A stretch of DNA of 31,491 nucleotides from Escherichia coli (GTDB lineage: Bacteria; Pseudomonadota; Gammaproteobacteria; Enterobacterales; Enterobacteriaceae): the NCBI RefSeq assembly GCF_003334255.1, contig NZ_QOWU01000059.1; one strand, written 5' to 3'. Shown here one piece after another: positions 407 through 23,692 of the stretch. The notes under the pieces were generated by a model. The model worked only from the letters and a program-made list of their open reading frames with translations, did no database searches and was not told the origin of the DNA. Position 1 is the stretch's first letter. Every line of letters starts with the position of its first letter. Position numbers and translations under genes: made by a program.

Positions 407-3400
407 ATGGGAAAAGGTGGCGGTAAGGCACACACGCCTCGTGAGGCGAAGGATAATCTCAAATCCACGCAGATGATGAGCGTGATTGATGCGATTGGTG
501 AGGGACCGATAGAAGGTCCGGTGAAGGGACTGCAGAGTATCCTGGTGAACAAAACCCCGCTGACGGACACGGACGGTAATCCCGTGATACACGGTGTGAC
601 GGCGGTCTGGCGCGCCGGGGAGCAGGAGCAGACACCACCGGAAGGCTTTGAGTCCTCCGGTGCTGAAACCGGACTGGGCGTGGAAGTGACGAAGGCAAAA
701 CCGGTGACGCGCACCATTACGTCCGCGAACATTGACCGCCTGCGGGTTACCTTCGGGGTGCAGTCACTGGTGCAGACCACGTCAAAGGGTGACCGAAACC
801 CGACATCCGTCCGCCTGCTGATTCAGTTACAGCGTAACGGTAACTGGGTGACAGAAAAGGATGTCACCATTAACGGCAAGACCACCTCGCAGTTTCTGGC
901 GTCGGTGATTCTGGATAATCTGCCTCCCCGTCCTTTTAACATCCGGATGGTCCGGGAGACAGCGGACAGCACCACGGACCAGCTGCAGAATAAGACGCTG
1001 TGGTCGTCATACACCGAAATCATCGATGTGAAACAGTGCTACCCGAACACGGCCATTGTGGGGCTGCAGGTGGATGCGGAGCAGTTCGGCGGCCAGCAGA
1101 TGACGGTGAACTACCATATCCGCGGTCGCATCATCCAGGTGCCGTCAAACTATGACCCGGAAAAACGCACGTACAGTGGTATCTGGGACGGCAGTCTGAA
1201 ACCGGCATACAGCAACAACCCGGCCTGGTGCCTGTGGGACATGCTGACTCACCCGCGCTACGGCATGGGAAAACGTCTGGGGGCGGCGGATGTGGACAAG
1301 TGGGCGCTGTATGCCATCGGGCAGTACTGCGACCAGACGGTCCCGGATGGTTTCGGGGGGACCGAGCCGCGGATGACCTTTAATGCGTACCTGGCACAAC
1401 AGCGTAAGGCGTGGGACGTTCTCAGTGATTTCTGCTCTGCGATGCGCTGTATGCCGGTATGGAACGGTCAGACGCTGACGTTCGTTCAGGACCGCCCGTC
1501 GGATGTGGTGTGGCCGTACACCAGCAGCGATGTGGTGGTGGATGATAACGGCGTGGGGTTCCGCTACAGCTTCAGTGCCCTGAAGGACCGGCACACGGCG
1601 GTGGAGGTGAATTACACCGACCCGCAGAACGGCTGGCAGACCTCCACGGAACTGGTGGAAGACCCGGAAGCCATACTGCGCTACGGACGCAACCTGCTGA
1701 AGATGGACGCGTTCGGCTGTACCAGCCGCGGTCAGGCCCACCGTGCCGGGCTGTGGGTGATAAAGACCGAACTGCTGGAAACGCAGACGGTGGATTTCAC
1801 GCTCGGGTCACAGGGGCTGCGTCACACACCCGGTGACATCATTGAAATCTGTGATAACGACTATGCCGGGACCATGACCGGCGGACGTGTCCTGTCCATC
1901 GATGCCGCCAGCCGTACCCTGACGCTGGACCGGGAGGTGACACTGCCGGAGACCGGCACGGCCACTGTTAATCTGATTAACGGCAGCGGTAAGCCGGCGA
2001 GCGTGGCCATCACCGCACACCCCGCGCCTGACCGGATACAGGTCAGCACCCTGCCGGATGGTGTGGAGACATACGGTGTGTGGGGACTCTCCCTGCCGTC
2101 ACTGCGTCGTCGCCTGTTCCGCTGTGTCTCCATCCGGGAAAACACGGACGGCACCTTTGCCATCACGGCGGTGCAGCACGTACCTGAAAAAGAAGCCATC
2201 GTGGATAACGGGGCCCGCTTTGAGCCGCAGTCAGGCACCCTGAACAGCGTTATCCCACCGGCAGTGCAGCACCTGACGGTGGAGGTGAGTGCAGCTGACG
2301 GTCAGTATCTGGCACAGGCGAAATGGGACACGCCGCGGGTGGTGAAGGGTGTGCGCTTCAGTCTGCGTCTGACCAGCGGAAGCGGAGAAGACAGCCGTCT
2401 GGTGAGCACCGCCAGCACCGCAGACACGGAGCACCGTTTCAGCGGCCTGCCACTGGGGGAATACACCCTGACGGTCAGGGCGATTAACAGTTATGGCCAG
2501 CAGGGCGAACCGGCCACCACCACGTTCAGGATTAACGCACCTGCAAAACCCGCCACCATTGAGCTGACGCCGGGGTATTTTCAGATAACGGCGGTCCCGC
2601 GTCTTGCGGTGTATGACCCGACGGTACAGTTTGAATTCTGGTTCTCAGAAAAACGCATCACGAACACAGCACAGGTGGAAAAATCTGCCCGTTATCTGGG
2701 GACCGGCAGTCAGTGGACTGTCCATGGGAGCCGGATTAAGCCGGGGACGGATTTCTGGTTTTACGTGCGAAGCGTCAACCTGGTGGGAAAATCTGCTTTT
2801 GTGGAAGCCAGCGGGCAGCCCAGCAATGATGGTGAAGGGTATCTGGAAATTTTCCGGGGGCTGATAGATGAGACGCTTCTGGGCCAGGCACTGAAAGAGC
2901 GCATTGATGCTTCAGCGCTGCGTACGGAGGTCACGCAACTGGAAGAAGACATCCGTCAGCGGATGGACACGGATATCGCAGAAGTGACCCGGAAAATCGG
3001 GAAGGCGGAAAACAGCCTCACGCAGCTGGTTGCGAAAAAGAATGAGGACCAGACACTGGCCATCGCGCAGGTGAGCCAGAAAGTGGACCGGGTGAGCAGT
3101 GAAATCTCACAGACTGTCAGCCAGGGGCAGTCAGAAAACGCCCGACAGATAGCACAGGTCCGCCAGTACGTGGATAAAAAAGGGAGTGAAATTACCTCGA
3201 CCACGGATAAAAAGCTGGGTGACCAGGCCGTGACCATACAGCAAATCCAGCGGGTTCAGTCAGACACGCGCAATGAGCTGAATGCCATGTATATGCTGAA
3301 GGTGCAGAAAACAAAAAACGGTATTCCCTATGTGGCCGGGATTGGCGCGGGGATTGAGGATGTTGATGGTCAGACGCTGAGCAGTATTCTGCTGCAGGCG

Positions 3401-4099
3401 GACCGTATCGCGATGATTACCCCGGAGAACGGCAACACCACGCCGCTGTTTGTGGCGCAGGGGAATCAGCTGTTCATGAACGACGTGTTCCTGAAGCGAC
3501 TGTTTGCGGTGAGCATCACGTCATCCGGCAATCCTCCTACGTTTTCCCTGACGCCGGATGGCAGGCTGACAGCCCGCAATGCGGATATCAGTGGAGCCAT
3601 CACGGCGAATACCGGCACGCTCAATAATGTCACCATTAACGAGAACTGTGTCATCAGAGGGAAACTGTCTGCAAACCAGATTGAAGGCGATCTCGTTAAA
3701 ACAGTGGGTAAGGCTTTCCCCCGTGACTCCCGTGCACCGGAGCGTTGGCCATCAGGAACCATTACCGTCAGGGTTTATGACGATCAGCCGTTTAACCGGC
3801 AGATTGTTATTCCGGCGGTGGCTTTCAGCGGTGCCAGACATGAGCGGGAGAACAGCGATACTTATTCGTCATGCCGCCTGATAGTACGGAAAAACGGTGC
3901 TGAAATTTATAACCGTACCGCGCTGGATAATACGCTGATTTACAGTGGTGTTATTGATATGCCTGCTGGTCGCGGCCACATGACGCTGGAGTTTTCTGTA
4001 TCAGCATGGTGGGTAAATGGCTGGTATCCCACAGCAAGTATCAGCGATTTGCTGGTTGTTGTGATGAAGAAAGCCACTGCAGGCATCACGATTAGCTGA
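407..4099 (+). CDS. J: Phage host specificity protein J (tail tip / central tail fiber), 1230 aa
   Basis: N-terminus [22 protein letters not shown]… and long collinear stretches (…[22 protein letters not shown]…, …[24 protein letters not shown]…, …[18 protein letters not shown]…) match lambda gpJ as I recall it. AGGGGAAGG Shine-Dalgarno lies ahead of the ATG at 407. About 100 aa longer than lambda J, with extra coiled-coil-like sequence near aa 820-950. Confidence 0.93.
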
Positions 4100-14510: not shown

Positions 14511-15971
14511 TTATTCATCTTTCGGCGCAGAATGCTGGCGACCAAAAATCACCTCCATCCGCGCACCGCCCAGCATGCTCTCTCCGGCGACGATTTTACC
14601 CTCATATTGCTCGGTGATTTCGCGGGCTACCGCCAGCCCTACACCTTGCCCAGGGCGTAAAGTATCAACCCGTTGACCACGGTCGAAAATGACCTCTCGC
14701 TTGCTTAATGGAATACCGGGTCCATCATCCTCGACCACAATATAGAGATGCTCGTCGGTTTGCCTTGCAGAAATTTCGACAAACTCGAGGCAATATTTAC
14801 AGGCATTATCCAGCACATTGCCCATCACCTCGACAAAATCGTTCTGCTCACCGACAAAGCTGATCTCTGGCGAAATATCGAGAGAGATATTGACCCCTTT
14901 GCGTTGATACACTTTGTTCAGCGCCGAGGTGAGATTGTCCAGCAGTGGGGCGACCGGATGCAGCTCGCGGCTAAGCAATGTCCCGCCGCGCATACTGGCA
15001 CGATGCAGGTAGTAGCCAATTTGCTGTGAAATGCGGCTGATTTGCTCCAGCATTACCGGTTCAGCATCACTGACGCTCATCTTTTCACTACGCAGAGAAC
15101 GCAGCGTACTTTGCAGCACCGCCAGTGGCGTTTTCAGACTATGGGTCAGGTCGGTGAGCGTCGTACGGTATTTGTCGTAACGTTCGCGTTCACTTTTTAA
15201 CAATCGGTTCAGGTTTCGTACCAGACTGGTCAGTTCTCGCGTTGTGGCTGGATTGAGCAATTCGCGGTTATGTTCTTCCAGTTCGCGGACTTCTTTTGCC
15301 AGGGCTTCGATGGGGCGTAAACTCCACCAGGCGGCGACCCACAGCAGCGGGATCACTAACAGCAGATTGGCTGAGAGCACATAGATAAACCAGCTCCAGA
15401 CCATATAGGAACTTTTTAGCTCCACCGGAATGGTATCCACCACCACAATGGTTAATTTTGGCATCCGCGATGTTGCCGGGTAGACGTTTACTGCCACCGA
15501 GTGGGTCATCTCCGCGTCGTCGTCATCTTCCCGCACTTCCTGCAACTGTTGCTGTATCGAATGATCTCCACTCAGCAAGAGGCTGGTATCGTTAACATCC
15601 GCTTCAATTTCATGAAAACCATTCGATTTCAGCCAGTCAGGCTGGATCATCTTCATCAGCCAGGGCACGTCACGTTGCGCCCATAAAAGCTGCCCGTTCT
15701 CATCATAAATTAGCGTCATGGTGGGGCTTTGCTTGTCGATATTTTCTGGTAACTCGACATGCAACTTATTGTTTTCCCACTTCGCAAGGGTATAGAACAG
15801 ATTGCTTTCGCCACGTAACAGCCGAAACGTAGTTTTATCGAAACTGACGCTATAACCGATCAGCGCGACCATTCCGTAGGCAAGCGAAAGCACCAGTACT
15901 ACCGCTGCCGTTGCCAACAGAAAACGTACCCGCAGCGAGAGCGGGAAAAAAAGACGCAGTAATTTTTTCAT
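14511..15971 (-). CDS. phoQ: Sensor histidine kinase PhoQ, 486 aa
   Basis: [25 protein letters not shown]…, acidic patch EDDDDAE, H-box [12 protein letters not shown]; full-length match to E. coli PhoQ. Start overlaps the phoP stop (ATGA). Confidence 0.95.
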
Positions 15972-16642
15972 CAGCGCAATTCGAACAGATAGCCCTGGCC
16001 GCGAACGGTGGTAATCACTTCTTGCGGATATTGTGCCTGAATTTTTTTGCGCAGACGTCCCATCAGTACATCAATGGTATGGCTTTCCCGCAGCTCCGCA
16101 TCCGGATAGAGTTGTAGCATTAACGAATCTTTGCTCACCACTTTGCCATTATTGCGTATCAACGTTTCCATAATGGTGTATTCGAACGCGGTCAGTTTGA
16201 TCACTTCGTCATTAATAGATAATTCACGGCGAGAGAGATCAACCTGAAACGGGGGGAGCGAAATGACCTGTGAAGCCAGACCGCTATTACGCCGCATTAA
16301 TGCCTGCATTCGCGCCATCACCTCTTCAATATGAAACGGTTTAGTCACATAATCATCAGCACCGGCACTTAATACTTCGACTTTGTCCTGCCAGCTTTCA
16401 CGGGCGGTTAATACCAGAATCGGCAGTGAAACATCGTTGCTACGCCAGCGGCGAATCAGTGACAGACCGTCCTCGTCTGGCAATCCGAGATCGACAATCG
16501 CAATATCCGGTATATGTTCATTGAGATAATAATCGGCTTCTTTGGCATCTTCTGCGTCATCGACCTGATGACCAGCATCCTGAATCTGAACTTTAAGGTG
16601 GTGACGTAACAACGCATTGTCTTCAACAACCAGTACGCGCAT
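15971..16642 (-). CDS. phoP: Response regulator PhoP, 223 aa
   Basis: [40 protein letters not shown]… is an OmpR-family receiver plus winged-helix protein matching E. coli PhoP. Confidence 0.95.
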
Positions 16643-16702: not shown

Positions 16703-16719
16703 TAAACATTAAATAAACC
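16703..16719 (-). promoter_or_regulatory. PhoP box (direct repeat GGTTTA-N5-TGTTTA on the minus strand) upstream of phoPQ
   Basis: Plus strand reads taaacattaaataaacc; the reverse complement is GGTTTATTTAATGTTTA, which fits the (T/G)GTTTA-N5-(T/G)GTTTA consensus, ~60 bp upstream of the phoP ATG. Confidence 0.6.
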
Positions 16720-21146: not shown

Positions 21147-21317
21147 TATAGCCTAATAACGCGCATCTTTCATGACGGCAAACAATAGGGTAGTATTGAC
21201 AAGCCAATTACAAATCATTAACAAAAAATTGCTCTAAAGCATCCGTATCGCAGGACGCAAACGCATATGCAACGTGGTGGCAGACGAGCAAACCAGTAGC
21301 GCTCGAAGGAGAGGTGA

Positions 21318-22568
21318 ATGGAAAGTAAAGTAGTTGTTCCGGCACAAGGCAAGAAGATCACCCTGCAAAACGGCAAACTCAACGTTCCTGAAAATCCGAT
21401 TATCCCTTACATTGAAGGTGATGGAATCGGTGTAGATGTAACCCCAGCCATGCTGAAAGTGGTCGACGCTGCAGTCGAGAAAGCCTATAAAGGCGAGCGT
21501 AAAATCTCCTGGATGGAAATTTACACCGGTGAAAAATCCACACAGGTTTATGGTCAGGACGTCTGGCTGCCTGCTGAAACTCTTGATCTGATTCGTGAAT
21601 ATCGCGTTGCCATTAAAGGTCCGCTGACCACTCCGGTTGGTGGCGGTATTCGCTCTCTGAACGTTGCCCTGCGCCAGGAACTGGATCTCTACATCTGCCT
21701 GCGTCCGGTACGTTACTATCAGGGCACTCCAAGCCCGGTTAAACACCCTGAACTGACCGATATGGTTATCTTCCGTGAAAACTCGGAAGACATTTATGCG
21801 GGTATCGAATGGAAAGCAGACTCTGCCGACGCCGAGAAAGTGATTAAATTCCTGCGTGAAGAGATGGGGGTGAAGAAAATTCGCTTCCCGGAACATTGTG
21901 GTATCGGTATTAAGCCGTGTTCGGAAGAAGGCACCAAACGTCTGGTTCGTGCAGCGATCGAATACGCAATTGCTAACGATCGTGACTCTGTGACTCTGGT
22001 GCACAAAGGCAACATCATGAAGTTCACCGAAGGAGCGTTTAAAGACTGGGGCTACCAGCTGGCGCGTGAAGAGTTTGGCGGTGAACTGATCGACGGTGGC
22101 CCGTGGCTGAAAGTTAAAAACCCGAACACTGGCAAAGAGATCGTCATTAAAGACGTGATTGCTGATGCATTCCTGCAACAGATCCTGCTGCGTCCGGCTG
22201 AATATGATGTTATCGCCTGTATGAACCTGAACGGTGACTACATTTCTGACGCCCTGGCAGCGCAGGTTGGCGGTATCGGTATCGCCCCTGGTGCAAACAT
22301 CGGTGACGAATGCGCCCTGTTTGAAGCCACCCACGGTACTGCGCCGAAATATGCCGGTCAGGACAAAGTAAATCCTGGCTCTATTATTCTCTCCGCTGAG
22401 ATGATGCTGCGCCATATGGGTTGGACTGAAGCGGCTGACCTGATTGTTAAAGGTATGGAAGGCGCAATCAATGCCAAGACCGTAACTTATGACTTCGAAC
22501 GTCTGATGGAAGGCGCTAAGCTGCTGAAATGTTCAGAGTTTGGTGAAGCGATCATCGAAAACATGTAA
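21318..22568 (+). CDS. icd: NADP-dependent isocitrate dehydrogenase, 416 aa
   Basis: [45 protein letters not shown]… is a full-length match to E. coli Icd, with strong codon bias. Confidence 0.96.
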
Positions 22569-22591
22569 TCTCTCCATGTGTTAAATATTGA

Positions 22592-22622
22592 AACGGGCGT
22601 ATAACACGCCCGTTGTTTTATT
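22592..22622 (+). terminator. icd intrinsic terminator (AACGGGCGT-ataac-ACGCCCGTT followed by GTTTTATTTAT)
   Basis: 9-bp perfect stem followed by a T-rich run, 24 bp after the icd stop. Confidence 0.65.
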
Positions 22623-22670
22623 TATGTGGATATTATTAATAGCATATCGAGCATATTTATATGAAGCCCA

Positions 22671-22994
22671 TTACTTGAGCCCATATGGGCATATTTTTAT
22701 AATGCAACTATTATGTAAACATTTATTTGTTATTTTGCTTTCTCCTGGAGGACACTCTTGACTGCTTTTGAGTAAACTCCATAAATCCTTGTTGAATGGT
22801 GCGATGTGATAAATAGTAATAGGATATTCTTTATCCTTAAGGATAATACCAGACTTAACCGGTGTAAATATACTGCCAGGAGGGAGAAATATAGTAGATT
22901 GATACCAGATGATCATTTTCATATTACCCCATATGGCTGAAAAAGATATACCACATGTAGGTTGAATTACCGTGTCAATTACTATCCACTTCAT
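22671..22994 (-). CDS. iraM: Anti-adaptor protein IraM (RssB inhibitor; YcgW), 107 aa
   Basis: [32 protein letters not shown]… recognised as IraM; AT-rich gene immediately after icd, as in K-12 once e14 is discounted. Confidence 0.8.
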
Positions 22995-23454
22995 TTGTTA
23001 TGTCTTATCCCACGGTATTTAATATGGTTCATTAGGATGTTTATTTCTTGATTTTGCATATGAGTATATTACCCCCCCCTCAAAAAATAAATTAATTAAA
23101 ATGATGGCTTATATAAAATAAAATTTAAAGCAAGGAATCTCAATGGATGTTAAACAAAATGAGATTTTGTGAAAGCAATAAATTATTGACTTCGTTTTAG
23201 ATTTGTTTAGCTATAATGTTATACATTCAAATGACTGAACATCCTGTAATTAAAACATAGCCTTTATGCTACTTTGTACCAATTTGCTAAACATTATGGT
23301 TGCCTTTTTATATAACGATAATAATGAATATAAGCATGACATGAGAATAAGGTTTCAATTTTTGAGTTATATAGGAATGATTTAACCTGTTCCTGGCTAA
23401 AATACATATAACCGGATGATGACTAAACCAAAATACATGTGCGTTAAGTATTGA

Positions 23455-23485
23455 AACGGACGTGTGGCACGGCCGTTGTTTTTAT
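23455..23485 (+). terminator. Second, diverged copy of the icd-terminator-like hairpin (AACGGACGTG-tgg-CACGGCCGTT followed by GTTTTTATAAA)
   Basis: 9/10-bp stem then a T-run on the plus strand. About 45 bp (from ttgaaacgg…) resembles 22585-22625 at roughly 80% identity. Confidence 0.35.
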
Positions 23486-23692
23486 AAATATGTTAACCGT
23501 TATAAAATAACGTATCAAAAGTCAAGTGATCACATTTCAAATATCAAGTTGATAGTATTAGTCTGGTGATTATTTATGGGTGACAATAAAAAGACAGTAT
23601 TAATCATCCATAGAGATAGTCTCTGCACTTTTATTTCCATTATGCTAATGCCTTACTGAATTATGAAGCATTTCTTAAGTATCCAACTTTAG

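Follow-up and report, generated by a model that had tools for sequence, protein, structure and literature searches.

The spacer between iraM and ycgX in Escherichia coli raises the question of whether an AT-rich block that looks empty holds a new transcript or small protein, or whether its content is already known. We investigated this interval (positions 22995-23692) in a 31,491-nucleotide stretch of one E. coli contig (NZ_QOWU01000059.1, assembly GCF_003334255.1), referred to below as the window. IraM acts as an anti-adaptor protecting RpoS from RssB/ClpXP. An initial annotation of the window had proposed the interval as a candidate locus for a small RNA or a small protein, and had pointed to promoter-like motifs and very short open reading frames (ORFs) on the plus strand. 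Our analysis supports, with a probability of about 0.75, another picture: a mosaic of AT-rich DNA between two phage-family genes, with a minus-strand content that is already catalogued. The functional content of the interval is on that strand and consists of the iraM regulatory DNA together with the small-protein genes ymgK and ymgL, all of them known. What resembles unexplored territory is a gap whose other strand, not the one first considered, already has two listed genes for small proteins as well as regulatory DNA that has been studied.

The interval measures 698 bp and has a G+C content of 0.292, compared with 0.481 for the whole window, and this AT-richness is the only property of the interval that goes beyond chance. 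No ORF of 60 or more amino acids is present, the longest being a 39-residue ORF of the plus strand, followed by minus-strand ORFs of 37 and 36 residues. The left flank is iraM (22671-22994, minus strand; NCBIfam NF007393, E = 2.5e-51) and the right flank is ycgX, a DUF1398 gene (23693-24097, minus strand), as seen in the ORF map and the annotation, and the interval is the upstream region of iraM. The initial annotation had correctly given the approximate length, the AT-richness, the lack of an ORF of 60 or more residues, the flanking genes and the position upstream of iraM. It had also placed phoPQ about 7 kb away; phoP (15971-16642) and phoQ (14511-15971) lie about 6.4 kb to the left of the interval. 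The gene order, icd-iraM-ycgX-bluR-bluF without the e14 prophage, is that of a chromosome region, according to the ORF map and to a megablast search of 5426 complete E. coli genomes. The closest genomes are those of the human isolates G1/2 and G6/7, with 99.9-100% identity, and the interval shares about 99.6-99.7% of its nucleotides with K-12. The window as a whole reaches 99.6-99.9% identity to K-12-type strains, in which ymgK and ymgL are annotated at the corresponding coordinates. For the comparison between lineages, ten E. coli lineages were used, with 89.6-100% identity over the interval; no copy more divergent than this set was found among the 5426 E. coli genomes.

Two small-protein genes are encoded on the minus strand of the interval. 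According to the K-12 and RefSeq annotations, ymgK (b4738; 23250-23294) specifies the 14 residues MFSKLVQSSIKAMF and ymgL (b4739; 23530-23640) specifies 36 residues, and both ORFs occupy the same positions and the same strand as their K-12 counterparts. YmgL is identical to the K-12 protein, and YmgK is equal to it in 13 of 14 residues, with the replacement A6V (window position 23278). This replacement is confined to the G1/2 and G6/7 strain type, and RefSeq names the variant ORF 'hypothetical protein'. Both proteins were detected by chromosomal tagging with the sequential peptide affinity (SPA) tag in MG1655 grown in lysogeny broth (LB) (VanOrsdel 2018, PMC6001520), in entries with exactly matching sequences and with iraM and ycgX as the flanking genes. 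An AAGG motif stands 8-10 nt upstream of the ATG in both cases (8 nt for ymgK), and the ycgX stop codon is separated from the start of ymgL by 52 nt. The expected small-protein locus is, therefore, present in the form of ymgK and ymgL, which lie on the minus strand and were already annotated, and not in the form of the plus-strand ORFs that had been flagged.

The activation of iraM by PhoP, stated in the initial annotation, is supported by the literature, in which iraM depends on PhoP/PhoQ. The iraM mRNA exhibits an approximately 20-fold PhoQ-dependent induction (PMC5740661), the orthologue ycgW drops to 0.09 of the wild-type level in a Shigella phoPQ mutant (PMC5775216), and a review ascribes the Mg2+ control of IraM to PhoP/PhoQ (PMC10948607). 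In genomic SELEX (systematic evolution of ligands by exponential enrichment), the iraM/ycgX spacer gave a peak for the sigma-70 holoenzyme and was also marked as bound by H-NS, both in vitro (PMC3946193). The sequence TTCATA-17-CATAAT (23639-23667, minus strand), proposed for this sigma-70 peak (PMC3946193), cannot serve ymgL because its -10 hexamer overlaps the ymgL ATG. Matches to a loose H-NS high-affinity motif are about 3.6 times denser in the interval than in the window overall, an excess that results from base composition. Battesti and co-workers are said to have found in 2012 that H-NS represses iraM.

We scanned for the PhoP consensus as the 17-mer direct repeat (T/G)GTTTA-N5-(T/G)GTTTA and, in a composite search, for a box in which at least one half-site is perfect, then a gap of 11-13 nt and a TAnnnT hexamer. 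The phoP P1 promoter, which is present in the window (16703-16719), has a perfect box, a 12-nt gap and the hexamer CATAAT. In the interval, the composite search yields exactly two sites, placed back to back and 36 bp apart; both keep the 12-nt gap of phoP P1, and this was counted in favour of an action of PhoP at the interval. The first is a candidate iraM promoter on the minus strand (23122-23156), made of TGTTTAACATCCATTGA (23156-23140), 12 nt and TAAATT (23127-23122). The second, on the plus strand, is made of the PhoP-box-like repeat CGTTTTAGATTTGTTTA (23193-23209), 12 nt and TACATT (23222-23227). The minus-strand box presents 3 mismatches and the plus-strand box 2, versus 0 at phoP P1. 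Both CGTTTTAGATTTGTTTA and TACATT are invariant in the ten lineages, and the second half-site of the minus-strand box reads TATTGA in four of them. The TGTTTA half-sites noted at the outset are indeed present: the plus strand has them at 23038-23043 and 23204-23209, the minus strand at 23151-23156 and 23288-23293. A full-text search of the published literature for the box sequence gave no relevant paper.

From its sequence, the minus-strand site would be the likeliest iraM promoter, for which transcription is predicted to begin near 23115 and to give iraM a leader of about 120 nt. The plus-strand box could be either an auxiliary upstream PhoP site that helps to overcome H-NS or a divergent promoter. 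About 80 nt ahead of the iraM ATG, there is a homopolymer of eight C (23072-23079; G8 on the iraM strand), which has nine C in K-12 and is interrupted in other lineages. This tract may be prone to slippage and is within, or close to, the leader or promoter of iraM.

The left end of the iraM region and a point inside the interval carry two copies of the same sequence. The icd intrinsic terminator (22577-22619, plus strand) is formed by a hairpin (22592-22614) followed by a T-run; the hairpin has a folding energy of −18.4 kcal/mol (z = −3.4) and the terminator is identical to the icd terminator of SF-468, a strain that lacks iraM. A diverged right copy is found at 23440-23482 on the plus strand, 84% identical to 22577-22619, which makes a 43-nt direct repeat. 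No icd coding homology is present upstream of this right copy, the repeat being limited to the 43 nt. The hairpin of the right copy is weakened here (−11.3 kcal/mol) and intact in other lineages, with −16.8 kcal/mol in one of them. The two copies bound an 863-bp segment (22620-23482) that contains iraM, its upstream region, ymgK and, at its right end, the diverged terminator copy. This segment is present in 3933 of the 5426 complete E. coli genomes, and about 28% are without it. In SF-468, Ecol_542 and 48956, which are without iraM, the sequence that follows 23482 is directly preceded by the icd terminator, or by the 3' part of icd that a prophage left behind, and ymgL and ycgX come after that junction. 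As the boundary between presence and absence falls at the repeats, iraM, its upstream region and ymgK form one module.

We favour an origin of the module by insertion rather than by deletion, because the terminator of the iraM-less strains is of the left type at every diagnostic position. The module has direct repeats at its two ends and a presence/absence polymorphism exactly at these repeats, as expected of an integrated element. No integrase or recombinase is found in the module by the ORF map or the annotation, only iraM and ymgK, and as a site-specifically integrated element the module is at most a relic. The recognition of a terminator-bounded iraM-ymgK module is a modest addition; the variable presence of the module accounts for the way in which strains differ in the coupling of Mg2+ and PhoP to RpoS.

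The junction just after the icd terminator is also a recurrent insertion site, with the insertion sequences (IS) IS200C and IS1, prophages and islands in other strains. Strain 48956 carries IS200C at the junction (3435-3893 of the extracted stretch), strain 2018-166 carries IS1 with a deletion that extends through to ymgF (2682-3379 of the extracted stretch), and strains without iraM present sitABCD genes upstream of the icd 3' fragment.

Both flanking genes are related to phage genes. IraM matches PHROG 4407 and YcgX matches PHROG 413 (E = 1.5e-41), and ycgX shows 72% nucleotide identity to positions 47322-47527 of lambda, at the right end of that genome. An iraM homologue with 72.6% nucleotide identity, restricted to the coding sequence, is located directly downstream of stx2AB on the opposite strand; in the Shiga toxin 2 (Stx2)-converting phage 1717, it occupies positions 2501-2824 of the extracted stretch and is the counterpart of window positions 22671-22994. 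This stx2-adjacent homologue occurs in 45 phage records, nearly all of Stx2 or related E. coli phages. Searches of phages and plasmids gave no phage homologue of the interval itself, the matches being limited to the coding parts of iraM and ycgX; the plasmid matches came from chromosomes with a wrong label or from large replicons derived from chromosomes. The iraM upstream region could not be aligned with those of iraL or of the Stx2-phage iraM-like gene, which are related to each other. Additionally, an IraM search of the contigs of species representatives gave no orthologous iraM upstream region outside E. coli. The low G+C content (0.29 vs 0.48) together with flanking genes of the mobile-element type characterizes the interval as xenogeneic DNA. 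The module boundary further shows the spacer to be the junction of two separately acquired relics.

Among the GTDB species representatives, the sole relative of IraM is an iraL-type gene of E. albertii NBRC 107761 (3001-3336), at a different locus, whose sequence agrees with that published for the 5' end of iraL. In addition, E. coli iraM is present with 100% identity in a contig of 558 bp that bears the label Oceanospirillum linum and is probably a contamination. On the other side of iraM, the icd gene (21318-22568, plus strand) has a 393-aa ORF in antisense orientation (21234-22415, minus strand); this ORF is not a gene but, almost certainly, an artefact of the reading frame in the highly expressed icd.

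The plus-strand signals of the interval are probably spurious, i.e. functionless by-products of AT-rich foreign DNA that is restrained by H-NS and Rho. The hexamers TTGACT (23186-23191) and TATAAT (23212-23217) are found where they had been reported, separated by 20 bp, as are the plus-strand ORFs of 14 codons (23216-23260) and of 29 codons (22962-23051), the latter with a TTG start and overlapping the iraM start. As a promoter, the hexamer pair does not hold, with a non-functional 20-bp spacer and hexamers that are not conserved: among the nine other sequences compared, TTGACT is replaced by TTCACT in six and TATAAT by TAAAAT in four. Sigma-70-like sites are not enriched in the interval (12, vs 9.0 ± 3.5 in shuffles), and the TTGACT/TATAAT pair is absent from this set because its spacer has 20 bp. 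Stop codons interrupt the 39-aa ORF of the plus strand in 4 of the 10 lineages. The hexamer pair and the short plus-strand ORFs are, thus, most likely chance products of AT-rich sequence. The presence of H-NS in the spacer and a density of H-NS motifs that follows composition are in line with this explanation. The invariance of the correctly spaced PhoP-like box and TACATT, however, argues against it.

AT-rich DNA bound by H-NS commonly yields spurious Rho-terminated transcripts. In K-12, a plus-strand Rho-termination region, classed as orphan, was reported at 1,212,310 (Adams 2021, PMC7815308), which corresponds to a peak at 23295-23305 (about 23300) on the plus strand of the window, just past the ymgK start (PMC7815308, supplementary file 2). 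In the absence of bicyclomycin, 45 reads were counted upstream and 42 downstream, compared with 122 and 293 in its presence, and the region has a score of 2.57 and a P value of 9.4e-5 with 800-nt windows (PMC7815308). A second Rho region is located on the minus strand inside ycgX, at K-12 position 1,212,983, i.e. about 23973 in the window (PMC7815308), so that transcription of ycgX into ymgL is probably curtailed in LB. The Term-seq tables of the same study present no 3' end between K-12 positions 1,211,600 and 1,212,799, in LB or in M63 (PMC7815308). These data show a weak plus-strand transcription in LB that is curtailed by Rho, of low abundance and typical of H-NS-bound AT-rich DNA. A stable small RNA in the interval, the other half of the initial proposal, has no evidence in the LB and M63 data, with neither a mapped 3' end in K-12 nor an Rfam match.

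The two small ORFs could themselves be translational noise, arising from chance ribosome-binding sites and ATG codons in AT-rich transcripts; this is a serious possibility, which we regard as somewhat doubtful. The comparison of the ten lineages gives a different answer for each ORF. For ymgL, the ratio of nonsynonymous to synonymous polymorphism per site (pN/pS) is 0.73, as in the out-of-frame controls (0.62-0.63), and at least 11 of the 36 residues are variable, which speaks for noise. For ymgK, the pN/pS is 0.07, from only 6 substitution events, of which 4 are synonymous and 2 are singleton replacements, with a nominal P of about 0.02, which speaks against it; for comparison, the ratios are 0.27 for iraM and 0.08 for ycgX. 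The lack of a selection signal for YmgL, unlike YmgK, is an addition of the present analysis. Neither YmgK nor YmgL has a protein-family match in NCBIfam or PHROG, and in the tagging study annotation and conservation failed to predict detection (PMC6001520), two points in favour of noise. Nevertheless, all 10 lineages keep the two ORFs open and unchanged in length despite the stop-rich DNA, and the AAGG motif ahead of both ATG codons also counts against a chance origin.

The plus-strand box could also belong to a PhoP-activated promoter that starts near 23234 and yields an RNA of about 70-250 nt antisense to ymgK, which would end near 23300 through Rho or at about 23488 through the relic icd terminator. 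Such an RNA would have a modulating effect on ymgK, or on iraM in case the iraM mRNA has its start further upstream. With only 2 mismatches, the box has the gap of phoP P1, it is conserved with its hexamer in all lineages, the peak of the plus-strand Rho region falls about 65 nt after the start that is predicted, and a relic terminator hairpin with a T-run, intact in most lineages, follows downstream. However, the candidate RNA (23234-23490) folds no better than its shuffles (z = +0.71), and a search with Rfam 15 over 22000-25000, with E values up to 1, gave no credible match; chance matches below the gathering score were limited to models of snoRNAs from eukaryotes and archaea, of the L20 leader and of tpke11. 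The complete lack of Term-seq ends, the low read counts (45 and 42) with a borderline P value for windows of 800 nt, the chance-level number of boxes and the common occurrence of spurious transcripts in this kind of DNA also speak against it. We consider this antisense RNA unlikely. A fully divergent PhoP promoter pair, in which the back-to-back boxes would drive iraM on one side and, on the other, a short RNA antisense to ymgK stopped by Rho or by the relic terminator, appears marginally less likely still. If true, it would be an unrecognised RNA member of the Mg2+/PhoP regulon of E. coli, in a phage-derived module that 28% of the strains do not have.

The weakest explanation, which by analogy with mgtL ahead of mgtA would make ymgK the upstream regulatory ORF of a long iraM leader, its translation setting the transcription or translation that reaches iraM, is improbable: ymgK has the orientation of iraM, with a distance of 255 nt from its end to the iraM ATG, is always co-inherited with iraM within the module, has a conserved peptide with variable synonymous sites and is preceded by the promoter-like TTCTCA-18-TATTAT, but no terminator or attenuator hairpin was found between ymgK and iraM, the iraM leader has no excess structure compared with shuffles (z = +0.96), the best PhoP-type candidate for the iraM promoter lies downstream of ymgK, and the peptide has no obvious sensing residues and a selection signal made of 6 events.

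We therefore return to the mosaic with a catalogued minus strand, against which several points have to be weighed. Plus-strand transcription exists, so that this strand is not silent. PhoP-box-like 17-mers with at most 2 mismatches number 2 versus 0.65 expected (P = 0.14), which is not above AT-rich shuffles. The composite sites are rare in shuffles (mean 0.125, P = 0.007), a value that overstates the support because the test was defined after the sites had been seen. The assignment of the iraM promoter to the minus-strand site rests on inference. Finally, since ymgL carries no sign of selection on its amino acids, the word 'gene' may overstate its role.

In the mosaic that we favour, the interval reads as follows from right to left, which is the direction of transcription. 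The trailer of ycgX, with the translated 36-codon ymgL, comes first, then the decayed duplicate of the icd terminator as the edge of the 863-bp iraM module, then the translated 14-codon ymgK, and at last the proposed iraM promoter and leader. Phosphorylated PhoP would act through one or both boxes (23156-23140 on the minus strand; 23193-23209 on the plus strand), while in ordinary medium the AT-rich block as a whole would be silenced by H-NS and Rho. The prediction is that PhoP acts at 23140-23209, and the question is whether the site fires both ways.

The closest known system is the iraM-ycgX region of K-12 MG1655 (b1160-b1161), which has the same gene order and orientation, ymgK and an identical YmgL. 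It differs by the e14 prophage in icd, which is missing here, so that iraM directly follows icd, and by the A6V replacement in YmgK and the C8 tract (instead of C9) of the present sequence. The arrangement at the 3' end of icd also resembles the integration of e14 and phage 21 at the same hot spot, where duplicated icd 3' sequence flanks phage-related DNA. Unlike in those prophages, the repeat is here a 43-nt terminator only, with no icd coding sequence, and the enclosed DNA is 863 bp long, without an integrase.

Concerning the control of iraM, pagC and ugtL of Salmonella are reportedly PhoP-activated, H-NS-silenced acquired genes that are subject to counter-silencing, as Zwir (2012) and Will (2014) are said to have described. 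The iraM region is similar to them in being AT-rich, linked to phage genes, PhoP-dependent and bound by H-NS, and in having imperfect boxes, one of them reversed upstream of iraM. It differs in that no SlyA-type partner is in evidence, and in that one candidate box has the canonical spacing of ancestral promoters. With phoP P1, the two candidate sites share a direct hexamer repeat 12 nt upstream of a -10-like hexamer; their 2-3 mismatches, compared with 0 at phoP P1, set them apart.

Pervasive or antisense transcription that is suppressed by Rho and H-NS in E. coli is reportedly the subject of work by Peters (2012) and Singh (2014). The transcription of the interval is like it in its low-level transcripts from both strands, which increase with bicyclomycin, and in its H-NS-bound AT-rich setting. 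Unlike in that case, the plus-strand signal coincides here with a correctly spaced PhoP-box-like motif, a coincidence that leaves room for a regulated rather than a spurious initiation.

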